A DNA stretch of 64,000 nt, from assembly GCA_017433245.1 (NCBI GenBank), contig JAFRHO010000005.1, positions 27,183-91,182 on the forward strand, given 5' to 3'. The notes beneath the pieces are model-generated. The model ran no database searches. It saw only the letters and a list, made by a program, of their open reading frames with translations, and was not told the origin of the DNA. Both the position numbers and the translations under genes were made by a program. This document shows, one piece after another, positions 6,910 to 52,327 of the stretch (the stretch's first letter is position 1; every line of letters begins with the position of its first letter). The DNA comes from Candidatus Saccharimonadota bacterium (GTDB lineage Bacteria; Patescibacteriota; Saccharimonadia; Saccharimonadales; Saccharimonadaceae).

Positions 6910-6984
6910 ATGCGATTAACCGTTGCGAGCGGTTAAGCTTTACAAAACCAAAACAAATATTAAACATAAACAAGAGTGTAGAGT

Positions 6985-7941
6985 ATGAAAAAGACACATA
7001 AAAAAATCTTAGGTCTTTTCGGACTTGTCTTCGTGGTTGCAATGACTGTTTTTGCAACCTTTTTGCCGAGTCCTGAGGCCTCAGCTTTATCAACCGTGAC
7101 GGATCATATCACTGTGGTGGTGATAGGAAGTGAACCGTCAGCAAGCATCAGTAATCCTGATTCAGGAGATAAGTTCTTAACTCCGGATCAAATTATTGAT
7201 ATAGAATATAATAATATTAAAAGTTATAAAATCATTTTGACGTATACCGACGAGGATGGAAATGAGACTACTGCCACCATCATTGAGAATAATACGCCCG
7301 CAGAACACGGTCCAGACAGTTACAATTTTAGATCAATTGCGGAAACGTATGGATATGGTACGTATGTATTTAGGTTAGAGGCGGTAGGCAATGATGATTC
7401 GGCTTTGGGAGATGCGGTCGAATTTGAGTATGTAGCGATTGAGGCGGATTCGTCATCAGAAAGTGAATCCGGCAATCCGTATGTGGATTTGGATTTTGAC
7501 GAAGATCAGGATAGTTTGACGGAAGATTTAAAGATTGATCAGGTGGTAATTACGGTGTACGATAAGGATGGAAACCCAGTAGAAGATATGCCACCGATTG
7601 TGGTAAAGCCACCAGTTGGGCAAGTTGAAATTCCATTTGATGATTACGGAATCCCTGCCGGTGAATATATCTTGGTGGTACAACCGTTTAACGTTGCTGG
7701 TGATAAGTTATTTGAAACAGTAGCTGTTACAGTAGAATATGATGGGAAAAAGGTTGAGCCAGCACCGGAGGAAGAGGATATTGTGGTACCATCAACAGCA
7801 GATACTGGTGGATTGTTTAAGAATTTGAATATTTCGAAGTCGGACTATTTGATAACTGGACTTGGCTTATTCTTAATAGTTGGGATTAGTAGTATTGTAT
7901 TTATCAGTAAACATAATCGGTCAAGTAAGCGTCGTAAATAG
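6985..7941 (+). CDS. Secreted acidic Ig-like surface protein with C-terminal VPST(AD)TG motif, TM helix and basic tail
   Basis: Signal peptide ending ASA; C-terminus IVVPSTADTGG...YLITGLGLFLIVGISSIVFISKHNRSSKRRK. Confidence 0.75.
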   Translation: MKKTHKKILGLFGLVFVVAMTVFATFLPSPEASALSTVTDHITVVVIGSEPSASISNPDSGDKFLTPDQIIDIEYNNIKSYKIILTYTDEDGNETTATIIENNTPAEHGPDSYNFRSIAETYGYGTYVFRLEAVGNDDSALGDAVEFEYVAIEADSSSESESGNPYVDLDFDEDQDSLTEDLKIDQVVITVYDKDGNPVEDMPPIVVKPPVGQVEIPFDDYGIPAGEYILVVQPFNVAGDKLFETVAVTVEYDGKKVEPAPEEEDIVVPSTADTGGLFKNLNISKSDYLITGLGLFLIVGISSIVFISKHNRSSKRRK

Positions 7942-7958
7942 TAATTAAAACTCTGCAC

Positions 7959-8001
7959 AAAAAATCGGTCACCCGTATAACTGCGAGGGGTGACCGATTT
8001 T
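7959..8001. terminator. Intrinsic terminator hairpin after the 6985-7941 gene (possibly bidirectional)
   Basis: AAAATCGGTCACCC (7961-7974)/GGGTGACCGATTTT (7988-8001). Confidence 0.75.
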
Positions 8002-8006
8002 ATAGT

Positions 8007-8038
8007 TTGGGGTTTCTTTTCGGAAAAAGAAACCCCAA
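8007..8038. repeat. Perfect 14-bp palindrome without a U-tract
   Basis: TTGGGGTTTCTTTT-CGGA-AAAAGAAACCCCAA. Confidence 0.7.
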
Positions 8039-8055
8039 CAAAGAAAACCATCAAG

Positions 8056-8091
8056 AAAAATGAGTTGGGAGTGAATTCCAACTCATTTTTT
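8056..8091. terminator. Bidirectional terminator ending rpsB-tsf
   Basis: AAAAATGAGTTGG...CCAACTCATTTTT. Confidence 0.8.
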
Positions 8092-8103
8092 ACTTATGAC
8101 TAA

Positions 8104-8694
8104 TTATTCTGTAACCCCTAACTCTATACGCTTGAATTGGCGAATAGTGATGTTTTCGCCAGTTTTCGCGATGGCTTCCTTAATGAACTGCTCGACAGTC
8201 TTGGTGTCATCCAAGATGTAAGGTTGATTCATTAGAACCTTGTCAGAGAAAGCTTTCTTGACTTGGCCTTCGAGGATTTTCTCCTTCATGTTCTCGGGGC
8301 CTTTGAAGTTGGCTTCAAGTTCTTTGATTTTAGCTTTACGGTCGGCTTCTGGAATATCAGCTTCCGAGACGTAAAGTGGGTTCATCGATGCAATCTGCAT
8401 AGCGATTTGGTGAGCGAGAGTTTTAAATTCGTCGGTCTTGGCTACGAATGAAGTCTCACAGTTGACCTCGACGATAGCACCGAGGCGACCATCATGGATG
8501 TAGGCTTCAATGAGACCTTCACGGGTCTCACGATCACCACGTTTCTCAGCCTTAGTGAGGCCTTTTTTGCGCATTGCTTCAAGGGCTTTGTCAAAATCAC
8601 CTTTGGCTTCGACGAGAGCCTTCTTCGCGTCGGTAAGCCCAGCGCCAGAGAGCTCCTTTAGTTTCTTGATTTGTTCGACTGTTACTTCAGCCAT
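8104..8694 (-). CDS. tsf: Elongation factor Ts (short form)
   Basis: IKKLKELSGAGLTDAKKAL, EGLIEAYIH, VEVNCETSFVA; SD AAGGAGG. Confidence 0.97.
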   Translation of the reverse strand: MAEVTVEQIKKLKELSGAGLTDAKKALVEAKGDFDKALEAMRKKGLTKAEKRGDRETREGLIEAYIHDGRLGAIVEVNCETSFVAKTDEFKTLAHQIAMQIASMNPLYVSEADIPEADRKAKIKELEANFKGPENMKEKILEGQVKKAFSDKVLMNQPYILDDTKTVEQFIKEAIAKTGENITIRQFKRIELGVTE

Positions 8695-8761
8695 TTTTGC
8701 CTCCTTATTTTATAGATAGTTAAATTAAGTTTATGTAATAAACGATGCTTATTCACGGTGA

Positions 8762-9448
8762 TTATTTCTTACCTTCTTTAATAGCAGCGACGAAGTAATC
8801 AAGAAAAAGCTGGGTAGCTTTCACGGAATCGTCGTTACCTGGGATTACATAGTCAATATCAGACGGGTCAACATTAGTATCGGTAACCGCGATGACTGGA
8901 ATGTGAAGAACATTGGCTTCCTTTACGGCGTTCTTATCTTCCATAGCATCCACTACAATGATAGCGGCTGGTTGGTCAGTCATATCCTTGATACCGCCAT
9001 AGCGCTCGTTTAGTAAATCAATCTCTTCCTGGAAGCGCTGAACCTCGAGCTTGGAATAGCGATTCTCAAGTTCACCTGAAGCCATGCGGCGCTCCAAATC
9101 TTTTAGTTTCTTAATTTGGCGGTTGACTGTATCAACATTGGTTAGAGTCCCGCCGACCCAACGCACGGTGACGTAAGGCATCTCGACTGACTCGGCGGCA
9201 GCTTTCACGATATCCTTGTGCTGCTTCTTGGTACCGACAAAGAGCACTTTCTTGCCAGACTTCACTATTTCAGTGAGCTTGGGCAAAGCCACTTCGAGAC
9301 CTTCGATAGTTTTCTCCAAGTTGATAATATGGGATTCACCGCGTTTGCTGTGAATGTACGGTGCCATCTTAGGATGCCACCGGCTGGTCTTGTGTCCAAA
9401 GTGGGCACCGCTTTCCAGCAGAGCTTTCATATCGACATCTACTGCCAT
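8762..9448 (-). CDS. rpsB: 30S ribosomal protein S2
   Basis: LLESGAHFGHKTSRWHPKMAPYI, RWVGGTLTN, IPGNDDS. Confidence 0.98.
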   Translation of the reverse strand: MAVDVDMKALLESGAHFGHKTSRWHPKMAPYIHSKRGESHIINLEKTIEGLEVALPKLTEIVKSGKKVLFVGTKKQHKDIVKAAAESVEMPYVTVRWVGGTLTNVDTVNRQIKKLKDLERRMASGELENRYSKLEVQRFQEEIDLLNERYGGIKDMTDQPAAIIVVDAMEDKNAVKEANVLHIPVIAVTDTNVDPSDIDYVIPGNDDSVKATQLFLDYFVAAIKEGKK

Positions 9449-9468
9449 ATATGATTTCCTTTCTCTTT

Positions 9469-9526
9469 GCCTCGAGACCTGTAATCAGGAAATCTCCCCG
9501 AGGCTGTTCCATTAAAACTATTAATG
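9469..9526 (-). promoter_or_regulatory. Structured rpsB 5' leader (candidate r-protein autoregulatory RNA)
   Basis: Minus strand GCCTCGGGG-AGATTT-CCTG-ATTA-CAGG-TCTCGAGGC nested stem between TGGTATAAT (9532-9540) and the SD. Confidence 0.55.
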
Positions 9527-9620
9527 ACATCATTATACCACATACGCTTGCAAAATGCAATATTCTACGCTAGAATTACGCTAGGAAACAGGGTGTCGTA
9601 CGTTAAAAGGAGGTGAAAAG

Positions 9621-10283
9621 ATGTCTGATAATGATATGACCGTAAGTAGACAGATAAGCGTAATTATGACTGTTAGCACGGGTTATTATGAATTCAAAAG
9701 AATTCTGGAGTATGAAGATAGAAGGATGTACTTGTATGGAACGATTGATTCGATTGACACTGAAGACAAAGGTCTCTACTATGATGCCTCAATGACATCA
9801 AATATCATCGAACGCATTTTTGATTATAACCGCATGGATAGCGACATACCAGTAGAAAAGCGTAAACCAATTCTGCTCTATATTAATTCGCGAGGTGGCG
9901 ATATAGTAGAGGGGTTTGCGTTGGTTTCAGCTATTGAACTGAGTAAAACCCCGATTTACACAATTAATGTGGGTCAGTGGAGTTCAATGGCGTTTCTGAT
10001 TGGTATAGCGGGTCATAAACGCTTTTCGATGCCCAATATGATGTTTCTGATGCACGATGGTTCAACGGTGATGTTTGGTTCATCCAACAAGGTGCAGGAC
10101 AGGATTGATTTTGAGAAACGATTCGAAAGGGATGTTGTCCGAACACATGTATTGAAACACAGCAAAATGGATTCCGTCGACTATGACGCGTTGGCGCGCG
10201 TAGAGCTGTACTTATTGCCGGAAGATGCTCTGAAGCGCGGTTTTATCGACGAGATTGTTACAGATATCGAAGACATCCTGTAA
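9621..10283 (+). CDS. ClpP-family protease (divergent, accessory type)
   Basis: PILLYINSRGG, TINVGQWSSMA (catalytic Ser), RFSMPNMMFLMHD (His), ALKRGFIDEI; promoter TTGCAA-17-TAGAAT (9548-9576), SD AAGGAGGTG. Confidence 0.88.
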   Translation: MSDNDMTVSRQISVIMTVSTGYYEFKRILEYEDRRMYLYGTIDSIDTEDKGLYYDASMTSNIIERIFDYNRMDSDIPVEKRKPILLYINSRGGDIVEGFALVSAIELSKTPIYTINVGQWSSMAFLIGIAGHKRFSMPNMMFLMHDGSTVMFGSSNKVQDRIDFEKRFERDVVRTHVLKHSKMDSVDYDALARVELYLLPEDALKRGFIDEIVTDIEDIL

Positions 10284-10289
10284 CCCTAT

Positions 10290-10315
10290 AAGGTGAGCCC
10301 TAGGCTCACCTTTTT
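10290..10315 (+). terminator. Intrinsic terminator of the ClpP-like gene
   Basis: AAGGTGAGCC-CTA-GGCTCACCTT-TTT. Confidence 0.85.
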
Positions 10316-10355
10316 CTTTACATTTTCGTAAATCTCTGGTATAATGGTGGCAATT

Positions 10356-10712
10356 ATGAGTAAAAAAGAGTTACATCCTAAAGATTATCGCGACGTCGTG
10401 TTTTCTGACGAAGCGGCTGGCTTTTCGTTTTTGACCAAATCCACGGCGAAGAGTGAGGAAACCATTAAGTGGAAAGATGGCAAGGAATACCCTCTAGTTA
10501 AGGTGCAGATTTCGTCTGCTTCGCATCCGTTCTTTACTGGCGAAGAGAAGATCATCGATACCGAGGGTCGCGTAGACCGCTTCAAGGCGCGCGCAGCAAG
10601 AGCAGCTAAGTTGAAGACTGCACTTGAGAACAAGGCGAAGAAAGCCGCCAAGGAAGCAGACAAGAAAGCTAAGGCAAAAGAAGAGAAAATCGAGGCCAAG
10701 GTCAGCGAATAA
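10356..10712 (+). CDS. rpmE2: 50S ribosomal protein L31 type B with Lys/Ala-rich C-terminal extension
   Basis: [16 protein letters not shown]...[18 protein letters not shown]...DTEGRVDRF; no Zn-binding cysteines. Confidence 0.95.
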
Positions 10713-10731
10713 TTTAGCGAGTAATCTTGGG

Positions 10732-10758
10732 GCCGACCTTGAGAAAAGGTCGGTTTTT
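10732..10758. terminator. Terminator after rpmE2
   Basis: GCCGACCTT-GAGAA-AAGGTCGGT-TTTT. Confidence 0.8.
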
Positions 10759-10771
10759 GTTACCTATTTGG

Positions 10772-11377
10772 TTATTGTTCTTTAACTATAGGAGCTAGGA
10801 ATGCGCCAATAGCATCCTCTTTTGTATCAAACTGGTAAACCTCACCCATATCGGACACTTCGTAACAGTTGTCGTCCGCATTATAATAGATTGCGTAACC
10901 TGCTTCACCGATGAAAAATAGGTATTCAATATCATAGATTATCTCGGTCGACGGATAGTCTGTGATTTCTGTGATGGTGTTTTGGACTATAGTATCATCA
11001 TCGAATTCCTCCAAATCCTCCTCGGACTCTTCTGTTCCTAGATTATGGTAAAACCTTATAATATCCGTTTGGTCGGACATAATCACTTCGCCATGACCAT
11101 CTTGGTAGAGTTTTATCGCCATTTCGGGGCTCAATGTCGTAGCCGCCTGAGAAAGATTAGCAATAGTCGTCTGGGGGTCTAAATTCTCATATAACTTGAG
11201 GATGGGCGTCTCCGAATGTTCGGTCACCAATTCCATGGATGGGGTGTGGTTTTTGCTGGTCGTGATTAGGGTAACAACAACTGTAATTACGACGGCAAGT
11301 ATCGCTAACATAATTAGTACAAAGATTACTGGCTTCTTTTGTCTATTTGCTTGAAAAAATATATTAGAGTCTTCCAT
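10772..11377 (-). CDS. Hypothetical membrane-anchored acidic protein
   Basis: 201-aa ORF with N-terminal TM; start overlaps the upstream gene's stop (TAATG). Confidence 0.75.
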   Translation of the reverse strand: MEDSNIFFQANRQKKPVIFVLIMLAILAVVITVVVTLITTSKNHTPSMELVTEHSETPILKLYENLDPQTTIANLSQAATTLSPEMAIKLYQDGHGEVIMSDQTDIIRFYHNLGTEESEEDLEEFDDDTIVQNTITEITDYPSTEIIYDIEYLFFIGEAGYAIYYNADDNCYEVSDMGEVYQFDTKEDAIGAFLAPIVKEQ

Positions 11378-12894
11378 TAGTTTATTCCATTTAAAGTTAC
11401 GCTCTGGTCAATATTCCATGGCCTGAATGCCCACCAAGATGTATACCATTTGTAGGGTGTGCCTTTCGGAAAACCTTTGCTATTGGTGCGTGGGGTGGGT
11501 ATTTTATAAATCATCCTCTTGGGGAATAAGGGACCACCGTCGTATAGCACAACCTTATCTGAATACACCTCACCCACCATTGCAACATGCTTCCAGTCGC
11601 CACCATTAAAGAAATGTACTATGTCGCCAACTTTCAAATCTTTCCATTTGGTAATTTTGCCGACTTTGGACATTTTGATATGCTCCGGTTTACCACTACC
11701 GACTCCACCAAGGCTTTTTAAGCTAGTGGTTTTATAGAAGGTACTAACTGAATAATTACAGTTCGTCCGAACAGTGTTTTTATTCTTAAGGAACGTGATA
11801 ATATCTGTATTAGAATAGCCACCGCCGTGTTTTCTGGGATAATAGAAGGCGTCGTTACCTTTCCATTCAGTATACGTCGTCCCAATATCGTAATCCACAC
11901 CCCAAATCATCATGAGACCATAAATAAATTCTGATGCCTTCTGCAAATCGGCTGCGGTTTTGACCGGTATTTTCTTGATTCCACCTTTGCCATTAATGCG
12001 GCTAGCATAAGTCCAGAATACGCCGTTTTTACTCTTATCCAAGTTCTGAATGTATTTGAGAAGACCACCGGCTTTTTTAAGTTTTGCATCAACGTTTTTG
12101 TAATAAAAATCTTTCTTGTGTTGATTGATTGTGGCTATCGTTTCGGCACGCAGATGTGCCTTGCCATTGAAGCGAGTATTTTCCATATTACCAGTGGTTT
12201 CTCTCTGCGAGCTACCCTTGCTACTTGGTTTAGATGATGGTCGTGATGGGCTTATACTCGAGCCAGAGCTCGATGAATCTTGCACACATTCGATGTCGGT
12301 TTTTGCTGTTTTACCTTTAGAAGAAACCGCGGTAATGCCACTCGTGCCCGGTGCAACACATTTGGCATACGTTCCAATTGTGGTGAGAATGTTGGGGTTA
12401 TTGCTGCTCAAAGAATACGTTTCGTCTCCGGTTTGACTAGCAAAAGTAACACTAGGCGAAAAAGTTTTGCCTACGACCGCAGTTCCAGAAAATGAAATCG
12501 ACAATTCGGAGGCTTGTTGGTTATTATTGACTGTACTGGAGCTCGAGTTAGGAAGCAGCCACCTGAGTCCAGCCCAAAGAACAACATAACAAACAACGCC
12601 GATTATTATTTCATACAAGCGACGTTTAGCCTTAGCCGTATTGGTTGGGTCACCTTTAGACGTAAGATATTGCGTTCCGGCAACAGCAATACCAATTACG
12701 GCTGTAATCCCAATACCTATCGAGAAAATATCTAAAAAAAGTGAAAGGAGATGAAATATACCGCCACTTCCACCTTCGTCACATGAAACCATAGAGGTCT
12801 CTACCCCACCACAAGAAGTCGCAGATGCAGATTTTGAGATAAATATGGCTAAGGTGACGATTATTAACAAAATCAGTGGTTTCTTTTTAACCAT
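11377..12894 (-). CDS. CPR pilin-like (TrbC/VirB2-type) N-domain fused to an Ig-like domain and a C-terminal NlpC/P60/CHAP-like Cys-His domain
   Basis: Signal peptide, CGGVETSMVSC, IGITAVIGIAVAGTQYLTSKGDP...AKAKRRL..IIIGVV; Ig-like SSNNPNILT...PGTSGITA; Ser-rich linker; TNCNYSVS...LKVGDIVHF...KHVAMV; start set at ATG 6 nt after TATAAT. Confidence 0.7.
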   Translation of the reverse strand: MVKKKPLILLIIVTLAIFISKSASATSCGGVETSMVSCDEGGSGGIFHLLSLFLDIFSIGIGITAVIGIAVAGTQYLTSKGDPTNTAKAKRRLYEIIIGVVCYVVLWAGLRWLLPNSSSSTVNNNQQASELSISFSGTAVVGKTFSPSVTFASQTGDETYSLSSNNPNILTTIGTYAKCVAPGTSGITAVSSKGKTAKTDIECVQDSSSSGSSISPSRPSSKPSSKGSSQRETTGNMENTRFNGKAHLRAETIATINQHKKDFYYKNVDAKLKKAGGLLKYIQNLDKSKNGVFWTYASRINGKGGIKKIPVKTAADLQKASEFIYGLMMIWGVDYDIGTTYTEWKGNDAFYYPRKHGGGYSNTDIITFLKNKNTVRTNCNYSVSTFYKTTSLKSLGGVGSGKPEHIKMSKVGKITKWKDLKVGDIVHFFNGGDWKHVAMVGEVYSDKVVLYDGGPLFPKRMIYKIPTPRTNSKGFPKGTPYKWYTSWWAFRPWNIDQSVTLNGIN

Positions 12895-13001
12895 ATGTAT
12901 ATTATACCGCATTCTTGCTAAATACAAGAATGTCAGTGTGACTGCGATTTGGTATAAAACTAACAAAGATGTTATAATTATTATATAAATAAGGAGTGAT
13001 T

Positions 13002-13547
13002 ATGTTTGACACCAAAGAAGACCGCAAAAAAATGGAGAGCGTGGTCGAACGATTTGATAGTGAGATGAAGAAAGTGCGTACCGGACGGGCTCATCCAGAT
13101 ATGTTAGCCGGCATTAAAGTGGAAGCTTACGGACAATTTATGCCACTAAACCAAGTCGCGAATGTTACTGCATCAGACGCAACATTGTTGGTTGTTACGC
13201 CATTTGACCCAACCAATATCAAATCTATCTCTGAGGCGATTCGGAATGATCAATCCCTTGGATTAAATCCAGCTGATGATGGCAGAATTATCAGAGTACC
13301 AATTCCATCTCTAACTGAAGAACGTCGCAAGGAAATCGTTAAAAACGCTTCAGCAAAGGTAGAGGAAGCCAAGGTTGCAATTCGTAACGTGCGTGAGGAT
13401 GCGCGTAAAGCTGTAAAAATTGCCGCTGAGATGGGTGAGGATGTCAAGAAACGAGCTGAGAAGGAAATTGACGAATTGACTAAAGAGTTTAACGACAAGA
13501 TTGATGCAGCGTTCAAATCTAAGTCGCAAGAGATAATGAAGTTATGA
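13002..13547 (+). CDS. frr: Ribosome recycling factor
   Basis: KVRTGRAHP, LGLNPADDG.IIRVPIPSLTEERRKE, AKVAIRNVR; SD AAGGAG. Confidence 0.97.
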   Translation: MFDTKEDRKKMESVVERFDSEMKKVRTGRAHPDMLAGIKVEAYGQFMPLNQVANVTASDATLLVVTPFDPTNIKSISEAIRNDQSLGLNPADDGRIIRVPIPSLTEERRKEIVKNASAKVEEAKVAIRNVREDARKAVKIAAEMGEDVKKRAEKEIDELTKEFNDKIDAAFKSKSQEIMKL

Positions 13548-14215
13548 GTTTGATACATCTAGGAGTAATTGCCGACGGAAATCGACGGTGGGCGAAAGAG
13601 CGGGGTCTGCCCTCAATTGAAGGTCATCGCCAGGGATTGAAGTCAATCGAGAAATTAGTGAATGGCGCAATGGATGCCGGTATTCAGTATATTACATTCT
13701 ATGTATTTAGTACCGAGAACTGGGGGCGAAGCGAGAAAGAGGTTTCATATATACTGAAATTAGCCGAGACGAAGATTTTAGGCTATGCTGAGAAAATGAA
13801 AGCACGCAATGGTCGCATGGTGATTCTGGGTTCGAAGGGAAGAATCCCACCGAAGCTCCTCACTATTATCGAGAAAGCCGAGAAAATAACTGAAGATTGT
13901 GATGGGATTACGGTCGGGTTCTGTTTTAATTACGGTGGTGAGTTAGAAATCGCTGATGCGGCTAATGTCGCCCTGGAAGCAGAAGGCAAAATCACGCCGG
14001 AGACTATTCGAAAACACTTATATCATCCAGAAATACCAGATATTGATATGGTAGTACGTACTTCGGGTGAGGAACGGATTTCTGGATTTATGCTGTGGCG
14101 TTCATCATATGCGGAATTTATGTTTATTAAGAAGTACTTCCCAGAGATGGATGAAGATGATATTAAAACCATCCTGAAAGAATACGATAAACGTAACCGT
14201 AGATTCGGAAAATAG
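13544..14215 (+). CDS. uppS: Undecaprenyl diphosphate synthase
   Basis: HLGVIADGNRRWA, FSTENWGRS, NYGG, RTSGEERISGFMLW. Confidence 0.96.
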   Translation: MSLIHLGVIADGNRRWAKERGLPSIEGHRQGLKSIEKLVNGAMDAGIQYITFYVFSTENWGRSEKEVSYILKLAETKILGYAEKMKARNGRMVILGSKGRIPPKLLTIIEKAEKITEDCDGITVGFCFNYGGELEIADAANVALEAEGKITPETIRKHLYHPEIPDIDMVVRTSGEERISGFMLWRSSYAEFMFIKKYFPEMDEDDIKTILKEYDKRNRRFGK

Positions 14216-14231
14216 TGCTATAATATAATAT

Positions 14232-16369: not shown

Positions 16370-16386
16370 TGTGATATAATGTACCT

Positions 16387-17613: not shown

Positions 17614-17739
17614 ATTGCTCATGTTTATGATTGACTTGCTGCGTAGTGTGGCATAAATCCTGCTAATGTTTCTTAATAGTATTGACATAAGAATGGTTTT
17701 CGTGTAGACTTATATAAGTCTTAAATTGGAGTGACGGTT

Positions 17740-18186
17740 ATGATTAAAAAATCGATTAGTTTAACTGCCGAGGGCAAGAAAGAGCTCGAGGCCGAATTAG
17801 AAAGTTTGATTAAGAGTCGCCCGGAGATTGCAGAAAAGATTGCGACGGCGCGAGCTTTTGGTGATTTGTCGGAGAACGAAGAATACAGTTCTGCGCGCAA
17901 TGAGCAGAAGATTGCTGAGAGTCGGATTCTCGAAATCCAAGACATTTTGAAGAATGCGAAGGTAATTCGAGGCGGGAAGCGCAGTAAAATTGACCTCGGT
18001 GTGACTTGCAACCTGGACTTCGGTGGTAGGAAGGTAACTTATACGTTGGTCGGGCCAACGGAAGCGAATCCGCTCGAGGGGAAGATTTCGAACGAATCGC
18101 CGATTGGAAAGGCATTACTTGGTCGTAAGGCTGGCGAAGAGTTTGATTTTAATAACAAAAAGGTAAAGATTGTCGAAATCCAGTAA
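17740..18186 (+). CDS. greA: Transcription elongation factor GreA
   Basis: ARAFGDLSENEEY, ISNESPIGKALLG; promoter TTGACA-17-TAGACT 17682-17710. Confidence 0.97.
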   Translation: MIKKSISLTAEGKKELEAELESLIKSRPEIAEKIATARAFGDLSENEEYSSARNEQKIAESRILEIQDILKNAKVIRGGKRSKIDLGVTCNLDFGGRKVTYTLVGPTEANPLEGKISNESPIGKALLGRKAGEEFDFNNKKVKIVEIQ

Positions 18187-18204
18187 CATGATATAATATA
18201 TAAT

Positions 18205-19683
18205 ATGTTACTTGAAGATTATCGAAACGAAAGATTAAGAAAACTTGAAGAGATACGGGGGAAGGGCATAGAGCCTTATCCTTCTGTGACTGGGCGAAAT
18301 ACCAACATTTCTGATGTAGTCAATCATTTTGATGAGAAACAAGGCCAGGAAGTATGTGTGGCGGGACGTATTGTGGCGATTCGTTCGTTTGGTAAGTTGG
18401 TCTTCCTGAAAGTGCGGGACTATTCAGGTGACGTGCAAGTTTTCATGCGTGCAGTACCGGAAGAAACTCCGGAAGGGCTGTTTGGCGCAAAGGACGTGCG
18501 TCTGCTTGATACTGGCGACTTCATTGAGGCAAGAGGAGCCGTTGATAAAACGCAGACAGGTGAGATTTCGGTGTTTTGTAATTTTGTGAAACTGCTTACG
18601 AAGACACTGAGACCTCTGCCGGAGAAATTTACAAATAAAGAAGAACGCTACCGTCGACGTTATGTTGATATGAACGTGAACCCGGAGGTACGCGAGAGAT
18701 TGGTGAGACGTTCGAAATTCTGGCAGGCAACGCGAGATTATATGAATTCGCATGGATTTATCGAGATTAATATTCCGGTATTGGAACACACTACTGGTGG
18801 AGCAGATGCGCAGCCATTCGTGACGCATATGAATGCCTTGGATGAGGATTATTACCTACGTATTTCGCACGAGTTACCACTGAAGCGGTTACTAGGTGGT
18901 GGATTCGAGAAGGTTTATGATATCGGACCGAGGTTTCGTAATGAAGGCGTCGATGATGAACATTTGCCAGAGCATATTGCATTTGAGGCGTATGCAGCAT
19001 ATGAGAATTATGAAGATGGCATGAAGTTTTACGAAGAGATGATTAAGTACGTCGCCAAAGAGACGTGGGGAACCCTGAAGTTCAACGTGGGTGGATTCGA
19101 GATTGATTTAGACTGCGAGTGGCCACGTTATAAATATGCTGATTTGCTACGTGATAAATTCGACGTGGATGTGTTCGATCCAAACCGAGAGCAATTAATC
19201 CAGGTCCTACTAGAGAATTGGGAATCTAAGGACTTGAGGCGAGAGGAATTCGTAAAGAAACTAGAGAATACTTCTACACCACATTTGATTGATGACGTGT
19301 GGAAATTGATTCGGAAAACTTCGGCTGGGCCGTATTGGGTAATTGAGGAACCTTTGTCACTCTCACCCCTAGCGAAGAAGTCAACTGACAACCCGTTAGT
19401 AACGGAGCGGTTCCATCCGATTATTGCTGGTACCGAGATGGGTAATGGGTTCTCAGAGCTGAATGACCCGCTTGATCAATTGGCTAGATTCCAAGAACAA
19501 CAGGCGGCACGCGATGCGGGTGATGCGGAAGCGCAGATGCTCGATGTCGATTTCGTCGAGATGTTAGAATACGGCATGCCACCGGCGTGTGGTTGGGGCA
19601 ATTCGGAAAGGAATTTCTGGCTGCTCGAGGGAGTATCTGGGCGCGAGGCAGTACCGTTCCCATTGATTAAGAGTAAAGAGTAA
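18205..19683 (+). CDS. lysS: Lysine--tRNA ligase class II
   Basis: RYRRRYVDM, GGADAQPFVTH, YLRISHEL.LKRL, FRNEG, GNGFSELNDP, EYGMPP. Confidence 0.97.
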   Translation: MLLEDYRNERLRKLEEIRGKGIEPYPSVTGRNTNISDVVNHFDEKQGQEVCVAGRIVAIRSFGKLVFLKVRDYSGDVQVFMRAVPEETPEGLFGAKDVRLLDTGDFIEARGAVDKTQTGEISVFCNFVKLLTKTLRPLPEKFTNKEERYRRRYVDMNVNPEVRERLVRRSKFWQATRDYMNSHGFIEINIPVLEHTTGGADAQPFVTHMNALDEDYYLRISHELPLKRLLGGGFEKVYDIGPRFRNEGVDDEHLPEHIAFEAYAAYENYEDGMKFYEEMIKYVAKETWGTLKFNVGGFEIDLDCEWPRYKYADLLRDKFDVDVFDPNREQLIQVLLENWESKDLRREEFVKKLENTSTPHLIDDVWKLIRKTSAGPYWVIEEPLSLSPLAKKSTDNPLVTERFHPIIAGTEMGNGFSELNDPLDQLARFQEQQAARDAGDAEAQMLDVDFVEMLEYGMPPACGWGNSERNFWLLEGVSGREAVPFPLIKSKE

Positions 19684-19693
19684 TAATTTAGAT

Positions 19694-40928: not shown

Positions 40929-40966
40929 TGGCGGTTTGGCATTTTGCCATGCTATAATGAATATAT

Positions 40967-42607: not shown

Positions 42608-42627
42608 ATTGTGTTATAATAATGTGT

Positions 42628-46119: not shown

Positions 46120-46136
46120 TATATCTGTGGTATAAT
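46108..46136 (+). promoter_or_regulatory. Perfect consensus promoter with no downstream gene
   Basis: TTGACA 46108-46113, 17 nt, TGG-TATAAT 46131-46136. Confidence 0.65.
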
Positions 46137-46143
46137 ATATAAG

Positions 46144-46169
46144 ATAAAGCCCGAAGGGGCTTTATTTTT
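46144..46169 (+). terminator. Intrinsic terminator after gatB
   Basis: ATAAAGCCC-GAAG-GGGCTTTAT-TTTT. Confidence 0.85.
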
Positions 46170-46260
46170 ATGAAAACCTGTGGTAGAATTAGGGGAATCA
46201 TGTCTTGTTTTTGAGTGTAGAACTAAAAAACTGACGGAATAATAATTATTAAAGGAGCAT

Positions 46261-48360
46261 ATGACTGAAATTAAAGATTTAAGTATGCTGCGGAATATCG
46301 GGATTATTGCTCATATTGACGCAGGTAAGACAACGACCTCAGAGGCGATTCTTTATCGTACAGGTCTGAAACATAAAATTGATTTAGTAAAGGGTGGCAC
46401 AGGTGGTGCTGATACTGACTGGATGGAGCAGGAGAAGGAGCGTGGCATCACGATTACTTCGGCTGCCGTGACGGTATATTGGAAGAATCATCAGATCAAT
46501 ATTATCGATACTCCGGGGCATATCGATTTTACCGCCGAGGTGGAACGTTCGCTTCGCGTGCTTGATGGTGCCGTAGTAGTGTTCGATGGTAAAATGGGTG
46601 TCGAAGCACAGTCTGAGACAGTATGGCGCCAGGCGACAAAATATGGCGTGCCACGGATTTGTTTTGTAAATAAAATTAACCAAATTGGTGGTGATTTCTA
46701 TAAATCACTCGATTCGATTCATAAGCGTTTGTCTAAGAATGCAGTGGCGATTCATTTGCCGATTGGGTTTGAGAAGGATATTTGTGGTGTAGTAGACCTG
46801 ATTGATATGAAGGCCTACACTTACAAGGATTATGCTGACCATGAGTTGACCGTAGGTGAAATCCCAGCCGACATGATCGAAAAAGCCAAGAATGCTCGTT
46901 CAATGCTCGTAGAAGAGGCTGTCCAGGCCGATGAAGCTTTGATGGATAAATACTTCAGCGAGGGCGAAGATGCGATTACCGTGGATGAATTAAAGGCAGC
47001 ACTTCGTAAGCGCGTGTTGGACGGTGATTTCTTCCTCGTAACTGGTGGCGATGGTCGCGGTGTGATTGTCGAGAAAGTCTTAGACCTCATGACTGACTAC
47101 TTGCCATCTCCGCTCGATCGTGATCAAGGACAAACCGTTGGTACCGACCCGAAGACCGGCGATCAGATTGTACGCAAGGCTGACAATTCGGAGCCTCTTA
47201 CAGCTTTGGCCTTTAAGATTGCAACCGACCCGTTTGTGGGTAAACTTATTTTCATCCGCGTTTACGCTGGTAAATTAAAATCAGGCGATACAGTCCTCAA
47301 CGCTTCAACCGGCGATAAGGAACGCATCGGCCGCTTAGTCCGGATGCACGCAAATGACCGCAAAGACATTTCGGAAATTGGTGCCGGTGATATTGCGGCG
47401 GTTGTTGGGCTCAAGAACTGTACTACCGGTACAACAATTTGCAGCCCGGCACATCCGATTCTCCTAGAGTCAATTGAATTCCCGGATCCCCCTGTATCAA
47501 TCGCAGTGGAACCAAAGACCAAGGCCGACCAAGAGAAAATGGGTATCGGTCTGTCTAAGATGGCTGAGGAAGACCCAACTTTCCGCGTCCATACCGATGA
47601 AGAGACTGGTCAGACGATTATCTCGGGGATGGGTGAGTTACACCTAGAAATTATTATTGATCGTTTGAAACGTGAGCACGGCGTCGAGGCCAATACTGGT
47701 GCACCTCAAGTGGCTTACCGCGAAACCATTCGTGGTACTGCTGAGGCTCAAGGTAAGCATATCAAGCAGTCTGGTGGTCGTGGTCAGTATGGTGATGTTT
47801 GGATTAAGTTTGAGCCAAATGAACCAGGGAAAGGCTTTGAGTTTATCGACCAGATTAAAGGTGGCGTGGTACCTCAGGAATATCGCAAACCAGTACAGAA
47901 GGGTGTCGAAGATACGCTCGCTGGTGGCGTAATTGCTGGTTACCCAGTAGTAGATATTAAGGCAACCCTATATGACGGTTCATACCACGATGTGGACTCT
48001 TCGGAACTCGCCTTTACCTTGGCTGGTAGCCTCGCTACTCGCGAGGGTATCAAGAAGGCTAACCCAGTCTTACTCGAGCCGGTCATGAAGATGGAAATTA
48101 CTACCCCCGAAGATTTCATGGGCGACGTGATTGGTGATATCAACTCACGCCGTGGTCGTATCGATGAGATGGAGGATTTGAATGGTGGCGCTAAATTGAT
48201 TAAGGCGTTTTGTCCGCTCGCAAATCTATTCGGTTACACGGGTGATCTCCGTGGTATGACCCAAGGTCGCGCAGCTTCCTCGATGGAGCTTTACGCTTAC
48301 GAGGAAGTACCACCAAACGTAGCCGCTGAGATTATTGAAAAGCGTAATTCTTCGAAATAG
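46261..48360 (+). CDS. fusA: Elongation factor G
   Basis: RNIGIIAHIDAGKTT, ERGITITSA, DTPGHIDF, GMGELHLEI, KQSGGRGQYG, GSYHDVDSSE; own promoter TGG-TAGAAT 46181-46189. Confidence 0.98.
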   Translation: MTEIKDLSMLRNIGIIAHIDAGKTTTSEAILYRTGLKHKIDLVKGGTGGADTDWMEQEKERGITITSAAVTVYWKNHQINIIDTPGHIDFTAEVERSLRVLDGAVVVFDGKMGVEAQSETVWRQATKYGVPRICFVNKINQIGGDFYKSLDSIHKRLSKNAVAIHLPIGFEKDICGVVDLIDMKAYTYKDYADHELTVGEIPADMIEKAKNARSMLVEEAVQADEALMDKYFSEGEDAITVDELKAALRKRVLDGDFFLVTGGDGRGVIVEKVLDLMTDYLPSPLDRDQGQTVGTDPKTGDQIVRKADNSEPLTALAFKIATDPFVGKLIFIRVYAGKLKSGDTVLNASTGDKERIGRLVRMHANDRKDISEIGAGDIAAVVGLKNCTTGTTICSPAHPILLESIEFPDPPVSIAVEPKTKADQEKMGIGLSKMAEEDPTFRVHTDEETGQTIISGMGELHLEIIIDRLKREHGVEANTGAPQVAYRETIRGTAEAQGKHIKQSGGRGQYGDVWIKFEPNEPGKGFEFIDQIKGGVVPQEYRKPVQKGVEDTLAGGVIAGYPVVDIKATLYDGSYHDVDSSELAFTLAGSLATREGIKKANPVLLEPVMKMEITTPEDFMGDVIGDINSRRGRIDEMEDLNGGAKLIKAFCPLANLFGYTGDLRGMTQGRAASSMELYAYEEVPPNVAAEIIEKRNSSK

Positions 48361-48371
48361 TTGCTTCAATC

Positions 48372-48405
48372 AATAAAACTCCCCTATCAAAGGGAGTTTT
48401 ATTTT
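48372..48405 (+). terminator. fusA terminator
   Basis: AATAAAACTCCC-CTATCAAA-GGGAGTTTTATT-TT. Confidence 0.85.
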
Positions 48406-48411
48406 GTATGG

Positions 48412-48437
48412 AAAAACCAGGCCCAAAGAGCCTGGTT
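48412..48437 (-). terminator. Terminator of the 87-aa gene
   Basis: Minus strand AACCAGGC-TCTTTGG-GCCTGGTT-TTT. Confidence 0.8.
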
Positions 48438-48451
48438 AAAGATGCAGGTGG

Positions 48452-48715
48452 TTATTGTTTTACGTCGGTGTCCAAGATCTGATGTATAGTAGTTGATTCT
48501 TTGGTTTTGCTTGGTTTTCTATATCCATGGGCTAAAAGCTTTTTATAAATCGTTTTAATCAAGTATAAGATTAATGCTACAAGCAAAAATGTTATAATCA
48601 AGGTTAAAACAAATCGTGCAACTAATATCGCCCAAGTACTGTGTGTTATCAGCATAATCACAACCCCCCAAAACAAAACACAAGTTAAAATAAGAGCCAA
48701 ACTTACAAATCCCAT
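48452..48715 (-). CDS. Small two-TM membrane protein (87 aa) with basic cytoplasmic tail
   Basis: TATAAT (48756-48751), strong SD AAGGAGGTGG 3 nt before ATG, own terminator. Confidence 0.75.
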   Translation of the reverse strand: MGFVSLALILTCVLFWGVVIMLITHSTWAILVARFVLTLIITFLLVALILYLIKTIYKKLLAHGYRKPSKTKESTTIHQILDTDVKQ

Positions 48716-48873
48716 ATTCCACCTCCTTAAGGTACACCACCTAGTGTACTATTATACCTTAAAATTAACGTTTTGTCTAGAACATAAGAGGTAATGCTCT
48801 AGATTTTTTCTGCATTTTGTGATATAATTATAGGGTAGTAGCGTACTAGTAGTTTTACATATGGGGGATTAAT

Positions 48874-49389
48874 ATGAGTAGTAAAGGCATAAAAGACGAG
48901 ACCGCCGGTAAGGCGATTTCACTAGCTAAAAGGGATGTTGTCCCTATGGTTCTACGTTATGAATCGGAAAGACGAAGCGGTACATATGGTGATGAGTATT
49001 CGGTAACAGTGTTGTCAAAAATGATCGACTCTAAAGTCGGAGCCTCTGATGAAGAGGTTATTGCAGTGTTTACTTTCGACGAAGAAGACCTGCGCAATAC
49101 ACGGTTCGTCAAGACCGAGCCGCCATATGACGTCATGACGTTTAAAACAGCTGACAGGTTTTATCTTGTGAACATGTTAGGTAAAAGTAGAAACAGAGCC
49201 GATAAATTGAAGAAGAAAATCCATGAGTATCTTCAGATTAGCTTCGGAAAAAGCAACTACGCCAATGACCGCAATACATATGCGTCTGTGGTGGATGAAC
49301 TTAGAACCGAACGCTTTATTAAGATGTTTAGAATCATCGCAAGAAGCGAAGCCCTGCGAAGCATGGCGATAAAGCCGCCCGCGTGGTAA
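48874..49389 (+). CDS. Hypothetical protein (171 aa), stand-alone transcription unit
   Basis: TGA-TATAAT 48820-48828, GGGGG SD-like, terminator 49421-49449; no family recognised. Confidence 0.75.
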   Translation: MSSKGIKDETAGKAISLAKRDVVPMVLRYESERRSGTYGDEYSVTVLSKMIDSKVGASDEEVIAVFTFDEEDLRNTRFVKTEPPYDVMTFKTADRFYLVNMLGKSRNRADKLKKKIHEYLQISFGKSNYANDRNTYASVVDELRTERFIKMFRIIARSEALRSMAIKPPAW

Positions 49390-49420
49390 GCACAGTAACT
49401 ATCGATTAATGCTACTACAA

Positions 49421-49449
49421 CCCTCGACTTTAAAAGTCGAGGGATTTTT
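49421..49449 (+). terminator. Terminator of the 171-aa gene
   Basis: CCCTCGACTT-TAA-AAGTCGAGGG-ATTTTT. Confidence 0.85.
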
Positions 49450-49556
49450 AATTTTACTCTTTACAAAAGTAGAAAAATAGTCTAAAATAGTAGGGTAGAG
49501 ATTTGGAGCTGGTTTTTATTAGCGCTCCAAACGTAATAAATATAAAAGGAGAATGA

Positions 49557-50741
49557 ATGGCAAATTTTGACCGTTCCAAGCCGCACATTAACGTCGGCAC
49601 CATGGGCCACGTCGACCATGGTAAAACCACTTTAACAGCTGCGATTACGAGCGTTCTTGCGAAGAGACTTCCATCGGACGTGAATAAACCAGTTGCTTAT
49701 GATCAGATCGATAACGCTCCTGAGGAAAAAGCTCGTGGTATCACCATCGCTACTTCTCATCAAGAGTATGAATCTGAAAAGCGTCACTATGCACACGTAG
49801 ATATGCCTGGTCACGCTGACTACATTAAAAACATGATTACCGGTGCTGCGCAGGTAGATGGCGCTATCCTCGTGGTAGCTGCTAATGATGGCCCGTTGCC
49901 ACAGACTCGTGAGCACGTGCTTCTTGCCCACCAGGTGAATGTGCCAAAGATTATCGTGTTCCTCAACAAGATGGACCTCGCTGATCCTGAACTCGTCGAG
50001 CTCGTCGAGATGGATGTTCGCGAACTATTGAACAAGTACGGTTTCGATGGCGACAATGCTCCTATCATCAAGGGTTCTGCTACTAAGGCCCTCGAAGGTG
50101 ATAAGGAAGCTGAAGATGCTATCATGGAACTCGTTACCGCGATGGATGAATACTTTGACATTCCTGAGCACGATCTTGACAAACCATTCCTGATGCCAAT
50201 CGAGGATGTCTTCTCGATCAAGGGTCGTGGTACCGTCGCTACTGGTCGTATCGAGCAGGGTGTAGTCAAGTTGAACGACGAAGTTGAAATCGTCGGTCTT
50301 CGCGACACTCAGAAGTCAGTTGTAACTGGTATCGAAGCCTTCCACAAGACTTTGGATCAGGGTCAAGCTGGCGATAACGCAGGTTTGCTACTTCGTGGTA
50401 TCGAGCGTGATCAAATTGAGCGTGGTCAGGTGATTGCCAAGCCAGGTTCAATTACCCCACATACTGAATTTGAGGCACAGGTTTACATCCTTAAGAAAGA
50501 GGAAGGCGGACGCCACACTCCATTCTCAAAGGGTTACAAGCCACAGTTCTACTTCCGCACCACTGATGTGACTGGTGAAGTTGAGCTTCCAGCTGACAAG
50601 GAAATCGTGATGCCTGGTGATCAGGTAACCTTCAACGTCAAGTTGTTGGCCCCAGTCGCTATGAACAACAACGACCGTTTCGCTATCCGCGAAGGTGGCA
50701 AGACCGTTGGTTCTGGTGTCATTACTAAGGTTATCAAGTAA
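49557..50741 (+). CDS. tuf: Elongation factor Tu
   Basis: [57 protein letters not shown]; own promoter TTTACA-17-TAAAAT 49460-49488. Confidence 0.99.
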
Positions 50742-50755
50742 TAATTGATTCCTTC

Positions 50756-50784
50756 AAAAAACTCCCTACAAAGGGAGTTTTTTT
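50756..50784. terminator. Bidirectional terminator between tuf and the VPDTG surface protein gene
   Basis: AAAAAACTCCCT-ACAA-AGGGAGTTTTTTT. Confidence 0.85.
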
Positions 50785-50798
50785 GTTTAACGGGTCAT

Positions 50799-52136
50799 TT
50801 AGTCGAAGTTGACTTTCCTGCGAAGGATGCGAGGCAAGGCTCGGATTAATAGAGCCACCGATAGGACCGCCAAAATCGAGATAGTAACGATTTGTGCAGC
50901 ATCAGTACCCTTAGTAGAGGCACCGGTATCTGGTACAGCAATCTGCTCTTCTTCAGCAATATGAAGAGCCGTAAAAGTGATATCTTGATTCACGATAACG
51001 CTTTTGATTTGTGCGAGGCTTAAGGGGTCGCCGGCTTTAATAGTGGTTCCGTTGGCTAGTTTAACATCGACGTCCGCCACCCAGGCTTTGTCAGTGTAGC
51101 CTTCTGCTGGTTTTTGCTCAGATCCAGATGGGTTTTCTCCCGCAACAACTCGTTCGTTCTTAATACCAGTTACTTCACCATTTTCGTCAGATTTATAAGT
51201 AACTGTATACTGTTTTGCATAGTATTCGATTCCGCTACCGGCTGCGCCTACGAAACCATAAACCATATTTAGACCTTCTTCCTGTGTGGACTCGTCAAGT
51301 TTTACGTAGACATTGGTGATTTGGTCAGTCCCAATAATGTAAGGGGTACCGCCTTTTTCGTATTCAGAATAGATATAGTTGCCAGATGAAACGAATTTGT
51401 TCCGAAGTGTAGTGTCGGTTGGCTGTAAATCAGCGGCACTCTTGGCGAACATGTTGCTTGGCGATAATTCGTTGCCAGTGTTTAGTATTTTATATGACTG
51501 AGCGGCATCTATATCAGTAATGCCAAAATATAGTTGGCTTGAGGTAAATACTTGACTCTCGTTCTTTTTGTGAAGATTTATCACTGCATTAACAAAAATT
51601 CTGTCGTCGCTATTACTAGCAGATATAGCCTTAACGCCTTCAAGAGCATCCCCGCAAGTTTCGGGTGTGCCGGCACTACGTGGAACCCAACCACCATAGA
51701 TAAAACCATGTATTGGGACAAAACCCACAGCAGTAACTTTGGTGCCAAGATCTTCTGAAGTCACAGACTTGATTTGCACATCTGCTTGGTATTGTCCATC
51801 AGTTATTGTAAAACCAAGACCATCGCTTTCCACGACTGGATTATCTTCTGACACTTCGAAATAGTAATAGTCCTTACAACCAAAATCGCCATCTTGCATG
51901 TAAGCCTTTTTCCATTTAGTAGCACTATTTGGAGTTGACGCAACATTTGAAGAATTTATTAGAGGAGTGAGTCCTTCGACCAACTCTTGATTGATAGTAA
52001 CATTACTACTGCCGAGATCTTGCCCGCCAGAGTAGACAATGCCATAGTTAATGCTGTCGGCAAAAACACTAGTGGCGCATAACACAGGGCTCAGTAAGCT
52101 CAGCGCTATGATTGGTAGTTTTTTAGTTTTTTTCAT
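50799..52136 (-). CDS. Secreted adhesin-like surface protein with C-terminal VPDTG motif, TM helix and basic tail
   Basis: Signal peptide ending VFA; YFGITDID, YTVTY...P.EGY repeat-like stalk; IAVPDTG...ISILAVLSVALLI...RRK; promoter TTGACA-17-TATTAT, SD AAGGA. Confidence 0.78.
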   Translation of the reverse strand: MKKTKKLPIIALSLLSPVLCATSVFADSINYGIVYSGGQDLGSSNVTINQELVEGLTPLINSSNVASTPNSATKWKKAYMQDGDFGCKDYYYFEVSEDNPVVESDGLGFTITDGQYQADVQIKSVTSEDLGTKVTAVGFVPIHGFIYGGWVPRSAGTPETCGDALEGVKAISASNSDDRIFVNAVINLHKKNESQVFTSSQLYFGITDIDAAQSYKILNTGNELSPSNMFAKSAADLQPTDTTLRNKFVSSGNYIYSEYEKGGTPYIIGTDQITNVYVKLDESTQEEGLNMVYGFVGAAGSGIEYYAKQYTVTYKSDENGEVTGIKNERVVAGENPSGSEQKPAEGYTDKAWVADVDVKLANGTTIKAGDPLSLAQIKSVIVNQDITFTALHIAEEEQIAVPDTGASTKGTDAAQIVTISILAVLSVALLIRALPRILRRKVNFD

Positions 52137-52327
52137 TTTTGATTTTCCTTTTTGTGTATTAACCTGCTTATGTTTATAATAGCGTACTTATCCGCTTTTG
52201 TCAACATTGGTTCATCTATAATCTTGCAATCATGATAAAAGTATGATATAATTGCCCTTGTATTATTAATAATTATCAAGTCTGAAAAACTCGTGTCTTG
52301 GAGGTTATCGGGCAAAGAAAGGTAAAA

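Follow-up and report, generated by a model that had tools for sequence, protein, structure and literature searches.

In mRNAs of the hok/Sok type, the outermost 5′ nucleotides are base-paired to the 3′ end (fold-back inhibition), which closes the whole mRNA beside its terminal hairpin; these mRNAs encode toxins of approximately 50 amino acids (aa), become active through 3′ processing and are under the control of an antisense RNA. Here, we analyse pairing between the 5′ end and the segment before the terminator in protein-coding transcripts of a saccharibacterium, beginning with a 64,000-nucleotide (nt) stretch of its genome (the window; contig JAFRHO010000005.1, positions 27,183 to 91,182) that carries a ClpP-like gene, a gene starting at position 6985 (the 6985 gene) and an orphan gene of 171 aa. 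In the hbs mRNA of Bacillus subtilis, a 14-nt segment of the 5′ untranslated region (UTR) is fully complementary to a sequence immediately preceding the Rho-independent terminator (−19 kcal/mol), and this interaction, which was tested by compensatory mutagenesis, inhibits cleavage by RNase Y (Braun, Durand and Condon 2017, PMC5737220). Among close relatives, the orthologous mRNAs do not conserve the hbs 3′ UTR (review PMC7821165). As summarised in that review, icaR of Staphylococcus aureus (Ruiz de los Mozos et al. 2013) possesses, within a long 3′ UTR, a UCCCC motif directed against the Shine-Dalgarno (SD) sequence, and its 5′-3′ duplex leads to RNase III cleavage and repression. Structures close to the 5′ end block RNase J1 in Gram-positive mRNAs, according to the introduction of PMC5737220. 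Whether intramolecular 5′/3′ pairing extends to other genes was described as an open question in 2021 (PMC7821165), and our literature searches on such pairing in bacterial mRNAs returned single-gene precedents only (hbs, icaR, RNAIII and hok) and nothing on Saccharibacteria.

The window corresponds to C13:27183-91182 of an assembly (G000) of 688 kb, 15 contigs and 43% GC, whose host is a member of Candidatus Saccharibacteria (TM7), genus Ca. Nanosyncoccus, from the ruminant gut; gut metagenomes contain DNA of this stretch. A first-pass annotation of the window had proposed that most of its transcription units are closed by pairing of their ends and had listed seven examples. We defined transcription units by combining called genes with intrinsic terminators and the best sigma-70-like promoters, with the start placed 7 nt past the −10 box, which yielded 91 promoter-to-terminator units in G000, including 11 inside the window. 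Duplex energies between the first 30 nt and the 30 nt before the terminator stem were calculated with RNAduplex, and cognate pairs were compared with non-cognate pairs by permutation; dinucleotide shuffles served as a second null. Four Saccharibacteria genomes were tested, G000, G027 (from another family of the same order), G075 and G004, and the pooled set comprised 297 non-window units after the removal of two tRNA artefacts. Because the window had been selected for the feature, it was left out of the enrichment tests. A promoter filter (ps of at least 10) improved the signal in G000 but not in G027 and was therefore excluded from the primary test.

The results refute a general closed-loop architecture in these genomes and make it fairly probable that a minority of end-paired, evolutionarily maintained mRNAs exists instead, in which the pairing likely sequesters the 5′ end. 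This class comprises roughly 5% of the promoter-terminator units and approximately 15% of the monocistronic units with an SD-containing leader of 20-60 nt. All arms quoted by the first-pass annotation were located and pair as it described, and three of its seven examples (ClpP-like, 171-aa and 6985) are within the best 1%, whereas the other four (87-aa, VPDTG, greA-lysS and rpmE2) are at chance level. Its description of the arms as the first nucleotides after the start and the stretch just before the terminator applies to the ClpP-like, 171-aa and 87-aa genes but not to rpmE2, whose 5′ arm lies at +26 to +40. The ClpP-like gene and the 6985 gene belong to the end-paired class, and the 171-aa orphan probably belongs to it as well (Table 1).

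Table 1. Features of the analysed transcription units, in window coordinates.
Feature	Position	Strand	Remarks
6985 gene, weak promoter TTTACA-16-TAAACA (TAAAAT in relatives)	6939-6966	+	Predicted from upstream sequences of orthologues; start at approximately 6973
6985 mRNA, 5′ arm GAGUGUAGAGUAUGAA	6974-6989	+	Contains the start codon; unchanged in most of the 27 orthologues
6985 coding sequence, 318 aa	6985-7941	+	N-terminal hydrophobic segment; no Pfam family; present in 47 of 61 genus genomes
6985 mRNA, 3′ arm ACUCUGCAC	7950-7958	+	In the 3′ UTR; orthologues have (CAU)ACUCUACA or G.U-pairing variants
6985 terminator	7961-8001	+	14-bp stem, 13-nt loop with conserved ACUGCGAGG
ClpP-like gene, promoter TTGCAA-17-TAGAAT	9548-9576	+	Predicted start 9583; same promoter type at the same place in orthologues
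ClpP-like mRNA, 5′ arm AGGAAACAGGGUGUC	9583-9597	+	From predicted +1; in the closing helix of both predicted folds; covaries with the 3′ arm
ClpP-like coding sequence, 220 aa	9621-10283	+	Pfam CLP_protease
ClpP-like mRNA, 3′ arm GACAUCCUGUAACCCU	10272-10287	+	Covers the final codons including the stop; 2 nt short of the terminator
ClpP-like gene, intrinsic terminator	10290-10319	+	10-bp stem plus U-tract
171-aa gene, −10 box TGnTATAAT	48823-48828	+	Predicted start 48835
171-aa mRNA, 5′ arm GUAGUAGCGU...UAGUU	48835-48854	+	From predicted +1
171-aa orphan coding sequence	48874-49389	+	No Pfam family; no orthologue among 60 other genus genomes
171-aa mRNA, 3′ arm	49397-49418	+	Ends 2 nt before the terminator
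171-aa gene, intrinsic terminator	49421-49450	+	
rpmE2, quoted 5′ arm	10377-10391	+	Within conserved coding sequence, +26 to +40; judged a chance match
rpmE2, quoted 3′ arm	10717-10731	+	Absent from 13 other species; considered a chance match
greA-lysS unit, AT-rich arms	17718-19693	+	Not above chance
87-aa gene unit, 8-bp pair UAGGUGGU/ACCACCUG	48445-48743	−	Not above chance
VPDTG gene unit	50779-52169	−	Not above chance against non-cognate arms

The arms of the ClpP-like mRNA form a duplex of −17.4 kcal/mol, which places the pair in the best 0.6% of non-cognates from the same genome and the best 0.9% of shuffles, and the minimum free energy (MFE) and centroid folds of the full-length mRNA (738 nt) both contain the closing helix followed by the terminator hairpin. 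Orthologues keep the pairing. Among 73 Saccharibacteria loci with a definable unit (of 132 loci), 23 reached p ≤ 0.05 and 14 reached p ≤ 0.01, and the cognate energy was −11.6 kcal/mol compared with −9.0 kcal/mol when arms were swapped among orthologues, a cognate mean that was matched by none of 50,000 permutations. The 5′ arms of these orthologues are unrelated in sequence (median identity 27%), and the non-coding 5′ end changes in a compensatory manner with the 3′ arm, which is anchored on the C-terminal codons (ACU/AGU, ACC/GGU, GCC/GGC, GAC/GUC, CUU/AAG, UUG/CAA and CUG/CAG). The check for compensatory changes in orthologues that had been suggested with the original list was thus strongly positive for this gene, by arm-swap permutation as well as by the codon-tracking 5′ end. 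Among the orthologues without the long-range helix, 38% had a local 5′ hairpin, compared with 9% among those possessing the helix (Fisher p = 0.012), which suggests that a paired 5′ end is selected, whichever the partner. The stand-alone ClpP-like gene sits between rpsB and rpmE2, is patchy within the genus (16 of 61 genomes) but occurs, with 132 loci, in many Saccharibacteria of the ruminant gut, and always has its own promoter, strong SD sequence and terminator.

For the 6985 gene, the arms pair with −12.0 kcal/mol and are within the best 0.6% of non-cognates and the best <0.1% of shuffles, with the 5′ window set at the start used in the first-pass annotation. The best consensus promoter of this gene is 115 nt upstream, and a weaker promoter that is conserved in the orthologues sets the start 3-5 nt before the arm. 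The closing helix followed by the terminator hairpin is again present in the MFE and centroid folds of the full-length mRNA (1031 nt). The start-codon motif GAGUGUAGAGUAUG is nearly invariant in 27 species, whereas the protein identity is only 27-44%, and its complement is located 0-15 nt past the stop codon, with at least 8 contiguous pairs in 15 of the 27 orthologues and at least 10 in 9 of them, compared with approximately 0.65 expected for the latter. The orthologue check was also strongly positive here; the 3′ variants ACUCUGCA, ACUUUGCA, ACUUUACA and AUUCUGCA all retain pairing through G.U, and one U.G in the family becomes C-G. The ClpP-like family maintains its pairing by compensatory changes and the 6985 family by conservation together with G.U variants. 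The 6985 helix spans positions −9 to +5 including the AUG, whereas the SD sequence and AUG lie outside the helix in the ClpP-like and 171-aa mRNAs and in the ahcY mRNA described below.

The 6985 family also carries RNA motifs (window positions 6835-6938 and 7961-8001) that are far better conserved than the protein and have no Rfam match. Its leader contains a CUAGGUUGGCAGUCUAG hairpin as well as others whose loops read UUGCGAG or CUGCGAG, and the loop motif common to the leader and the terminator may be a protein-binding site. A perfect consensus promoter, TTGACA-17-TATAAT, is located at 6835-6863 within the end of the upstream open reading frame (ORF; 5887-6909).

The arms of the 171-aa mRNA, also located as described, pair with −15.6 kcal/mol, which is within the best 0.6% of non-cognates and 0.3% of shuffles, and the MFE and centroid folds of the full-length mRNA (616 nt) likewise consist of a closing helix and then the terminator hairpin.

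The remaining four pairs on the list are coincidental. Although the quoted rpmE2 arms reach −12.7 kcal/mol, the mRNA has a leader of only 4 nt and its quoted 5′ arm falls within the coding motif HPKDYRD, the actual first 30 nt rank at 32% among non-cognates and 22% among shuffles, and the orthologue check detected no pairing in 14 orthologues. The 87-aa pair (−11.1 kcal/mol) ranks at 15% of non-cognates and 18% of shuffles and the VPDTG pair at 34% and 4.5%, respectively, while the greA-lysS pair has only −3.1 kcal/mol, with 59% of non-cognates and 37% of shuffles doing as well. The rpmE2 promoter TTTAC(T/A)-17-TGnTATAAT (10317-10358) is strongly conserved and followed by a leader of 4-5 nt in 14 species; because the leader is this short, rpmE2 is effectively leaderless and has no SD sequence. 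Approximately 18% of the promoter-terminator units in G000 and its relatives are predicted to be leaderless, with the start codon at most 8 nt from the predicted start.

Genome-wide, cognate pairing exceeded chance. Over all units of G000, the cognate energy was −8.26 kcal/mol versus −7.42 kcal/mol for non-cognates (permutation p = 0.002); without the window, p was 0.026, with p = 0.007 for monocistronic and p = 0.45 for polycistronic units. The same comparison resulted in p = 0.004 for G027, p = 0.02 for G075 and p = 0.2 for G004, and the Fisher combination over the four genomes, with the window excluded, was 2.6 × 10−4. Shuffle p-values ≤ 0.05 were reached by 30 of the 297 non-window units (14.9 expected, p = 2.4 × 10−4) and values ≤ 0.01 by 12 (3.7 expected, p = 4 × 10−4), an excess of strong pairing that corresponds to approximately 5% of units; inside the window, 2 of the 11 pipeline-defined units had a shuffle p ≤ 0.01. 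The median rank of the cognate pair among non-cognates was 0.4-0.55, leaving the bulk of units unaffected, the median shuffle z-score in G000 was approximately 0, and the median shuffle p-values were 0.31-0.40 across the four genome sets. The genome-wide effect is a heavy tail and not a shift of the bulk, and the proposal of end pairing in most transcription units fails on such median ranks and on an excess over chance of only approximately 5% of units. The duplex test that the first-pass annotation had itself suggested therefore gave a divided answer, an excess outside the window but a bulk that resembles non-cognate and shuffled pairs. The pairing signal resides in longer, interrupted helices as they are scored by the energy model; a run of at least 8 Watson-Crick (WC) or G.U pairs is held by approximately 16% of random 30 × 30 nt pairs.

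Two tRNA-flanked top scorers (G004 C3 20856 and G027 356020) were rejected as pairing artefacts. Such tRNA-flanked units (G004 C3 at approximately 20856; G027 at approximately 313,300) yield very strong false 5′/3′ pairs, either between a T-arm and an antisense T-arm or between a 5′ UTR and a downstream tRNA, which is relevant to any end-pairing scan.

The signal is specific to position and to unit type. We scanned 30 combinations of 5′ and 3′ windows over 287 units, again without the window, and the pre-specified combination of the first 30 nt (start +0 to 30) with the 30 nt abutting the terminator was the best on every measure (−0.56 kcal/mol; 9.8% of units among the best 5% and 4.2% among the best 1%), while the other combinations scattered about expectation. 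When the 5′ windows were anchored on the start codon and not on the predicted start, the signal was weaker (pooled p of approximately 0.05). A shuffle p ≤ 0.05 was obtained for 1 of 55 leaderless units versus 14 of 112 units with leaders of 20-60 nt, and for 25 of 189 monocistronic versus 7 of 110 polycistronic units; for monocistronic units with a 20-60-nt leader, the count was 13 of 80 (p = 1.6 × 10−4).

Strong individual cases outside the window are all monocistronic. They include ahcY of G000 (S-adenosylhomocysteine hydrolase), with 17 bp between the 5′ end from +1 and the stop codon and 3′ UTR, a G075 unit with a perfect 14-bp helix from +1 and a 3′ arm that ends 3 nt before the terminator, a 20-bp case in G004, and a 22-bp case in G027 that ends 1 nt before the terminator; some units outside the window pair an SD-like GGAGG with CCUCC. 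The ahcY gene was found in 3 of 41 genomes and the G075 gene, which has no usable orthologues, in 2 of 121. Across the order, 17 of 18 ahcY loci from other genera gave no terminator-bounded unit and are uninformative, and in the two orthologues from the same genus the 5′ UTR pairs with the end of the coding sequence at other positions. In rpsL-rpsG, the conserved leader sequence UUGCUG pairs with a pre-terminator CAGCAA in several species (permutation p = 0.018, 23 orthologues). The rpsL (S12) leader (G000 C13:17475-17549) also has a AAGAGUUUCAGC...UUGCUGUAAG element that is conserved across the genus and may be a ribosomal-protein leader or autoregulatory structure.

In the mechanism that we propose, the first nucleotides of an mRNA are complementary to the segment that separates the end of its ORF from the intrinsic terminator. 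Once the transcript is complete, the two arms would join in a helix directly next to the terminator hairpin, so that the entire mRNA is closed and neither end is left single-stranded. In vivo, such a helix would sequester the 5′ terminus from 5′-end-dependent decay that involves RNase J, RNase Y or a pyrophosphohydrolase. Sequestering of the 5′ terminus appears to be the likeliest function because of the analogy with the RNase J1-blocking 5′-proximal structures and with the hbs interaction. Profile searches of the genome identified RNase J (TIGR00649, 444 bits) and RNase Y (TIGR03319, 613 bits) above their cut-offs and RNase III and PNPase above curated cut-offs; Rho was not found in the assembly, which is only 78% complete. 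In the 6985 family, the helix would additionally silence translation of the finished transcript, and by analogy start-codon occlusion as in icaR is as likely there as sequestering of the 5′ end. We regard it as a rather doubtful, tentative extension that Saccharibacteria, which combine RNase J/Y-type RNA decay with many leaderless mRNAs, require throughout the lineage that the 5′ terminus of their leadered monocistronic mRNAs be sequestered, a need satisfied interchangeably by a local hairpin or by pre-terminator pairing. If true, approximately 15% of the leadered monocistronic mRNAs would be true end-to-end closed molecules, and wherever the closing helix overlaps the stop codon, terminating ribosomes would reopen the 5′ end and couple decay or re-initiation to translation.

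Several observations weigh against the proposed class of end-protected mRNAs. The genome-wide excess is small, and the longest contiguous run shows no significant cognate excess (WC runs of at least 8 in 8 units versus 4.2 expected, p = 0.06). Some off-target combinations of the position scan reached 3% of units in the best 1%, which indicates that the null is somewhat overdispersed. The first-pass annotation had taken G-U pairs as a sign of selection on the sense strand; however, G.U and A.C around strand-symmetric WC seeds were balanced at 5:5 in the units (204:216 in non-cognates), and the 13:6 ratio in the ClpP-like orthologues (p = 0.17) likewise gives no strand asymmetry. Pairing is phylogenetically patchy: it is missing from the nearest ClpP-like relative (75% amino-acid identity), and in 31 of the 73 orthologues both the helix and a stable local hairpin are absent. 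Across the genomes, there was no preference for hairpins that begin exactly at +1, and because the rise at +1 to +12 was only weak and broad, we make no claim of general 5′ hairpins. All transcript starts and ends are predictions, the starts being set from the best sigma-70-like −10 box; the protective function of the helix is something that we infer purely by analogy.

Selective reading of chance matches is one alternative: free arm placement, bulges and G-U pairs make matches of 8-10 bp expected, runs of at least 8 pairs occur in approximately 16% of random pairs, the run-length statistics lack a cognate excess, and the window itself came out of a very large scan, so that selection bias is strong. 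That such pairing is nowhere maintained is nevertheless highly improbable, given the excess in independent non-window units and in three other genomes, the complementarity between unrelated ClpP-like arms that no permutation matched and that changes in a compensatory way at homologous codons, the long runs in the 6985 family and the perfect 14-mer starting at +1 in G075. At the other extreme, a general architecture in which most mRNAs pair the 5′ end with the pre-terminator segment would account for the ease with which seven pairs could be listed in one window and for a mean cognate energy slightly below the non-cognate mean, but the medians are those of non-cognate or shuffled pairs, no signal is present in polycistronic or leaderless units, four of the seven listed pairs do not exceed chance and rpmE2 is unpaired throughout its 14 orthologues, and we consider this reading scarcely credible.

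The arms could also be inverted repeats at the DNA level, remnants or working ends of gene cassettes, such as recombination or insertion sites on either side of accessory genes. The strongest cases are indeed patchy accessory or orphan genes (ClpP-like in 16 of 61 genomes, 171-aa in 1 of 61, ahcY in 3 of 41 and the G075 gene in 2 of 121), and the absence of a sense-strand bias of G.U over A.C fits such repeats. Yet the arms run from the predicted +1 to the terminator, with both promoter and terminator outside the repeat as expected for a transcript, the ClpP-like 3′ arms are coding and are tracked codon by codon by the non-coding 5′ arm within a conserved rpsB-rpmE2 synteny, leaderless units are without signal, the 6985 family and rpsL-rpsG are core genes, and the 6985 3′ variants are limited to those tolerated as G.U on the sense strand. 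Because promoter and terminator are outside the repeat, the coding 3′ arm covaries and leaderless units are signal-free, a DNA cassette is disfavoured and very unlikely. A further alternative accepts the pairing as real and sees in it a negative regulator, acting by occlusion of the ribosome-binding site or start codon and as an RNase III substrate as in icaR, or keeping the mRNA inert until it is processed as in hok. It draws on the 6985 helix, which includes the AUG and the preceding 9 nt, on the out-of-window pairs of GGAGG with CCUCC, on an encoded RNase III that would meet approximately 20-24 bp of helix and stacked terminator in the ClpP-like and 171-aa mRNAs, and on the icaR and RNAIII precedents (PMC7821165). 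In the ClpP-like, 171-aa and ahcY mRNAs, however, the SD sequence and AUG are 10-25 nt downstream and outside the helix, the products are proteins of ordinary size and not small toxins, there is no sign of an antisense RNA (no targeted search for antisense promoters was made), and the interchange with local 5′ hairpins in the ClpP-like orthologues fits end protection better. We therefore consider negative regulation unlikely as the common explanation and retain sequestering of the 5′ end.

With respect to other RNA information on the window, an Rfam scan at gathering thresholds gave a single match, a tRNA, and no small RNA. No RNA record is listed for it, and two runs marked 'RNA?' consist of contigs that are probably DNA. 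The contigs of these RNA-Seq-labelled runs are short pieces (for example, 10068-10314 and 10347-10573) that cannot prove transcript ends; one stops where the ClpP-like terminator ends (10314), and another begins at 10347, with the predicted rpmE2 start 5 nt downstream.

Compared with the described systems, the arms reported here resemble those of hok in beginning at the predicted +1 to +6 and ending beside the terminator, but the ORFs encode 171-413 aa (a Clp protease fold, an S-adenosylhomocysteine hydrolase and family-less proteins), with no small-toxin ORF. As in hbs, the 5′ segments of the ClpP-like, 171-aa and 6985 mRNAs are complementary to a pre-terminator segment, with 3′ arms that end 1-7 nt before the stem, and the decay machinery with RNase Y and RNase J is encoded in this host as well. 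In hbs, however, the arm is internal and downstream of hairpin hp2, with the terminus shielded by local hairpins, whereas here it is at or near the predicted +1. The hbs interaction was tested by mutagenesis, whereas pairing here is predicted from sequence, with natural compensatory changes as the nearest substitute for such mutagenesis, and unlike the unconserved hbs 3′ UTR, the complementarity here is maintained across many species. As far as icaR is covered by the review cited above, the likeness consists in an intramolecular 5′-3′ duplex in a protein-coding mRNA, in a predicted helix that would cover the translation start in the 6985 family and in an encoded RNase III; the difference is that the ClpP-like, 171-aa and ahcY arms leave the SD sequence free and that the 3′ arm overlaps the stop codon or lies in a very short 3′ UTR. 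The property that appears to be selected, a base-paired 5′ terminus, is shared with 5′-terminal stem-loop stabilisers, and ClpP-like orthologues alternate between hairpin and helix, but the partner strand is 0.6-1.3 kb away at the 3′ end and not in the leader.

To these single-gene systems, our analysis adds comparative evidence that evolution has preserved the pairing in two or more gene families of a lineage that is uncultivated and has reduced genomes, together with an estimate of prevalence and a defined geometry, in which +1 is paired to the segment abutting the terminator. Short complementarities like those listed at the outset are expected by chance, and statistics and orthologues alone separate the real cases from them. 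The end-paired mRNAs described here are additions to known single-gene cases such as hbs and not a new general architecture.

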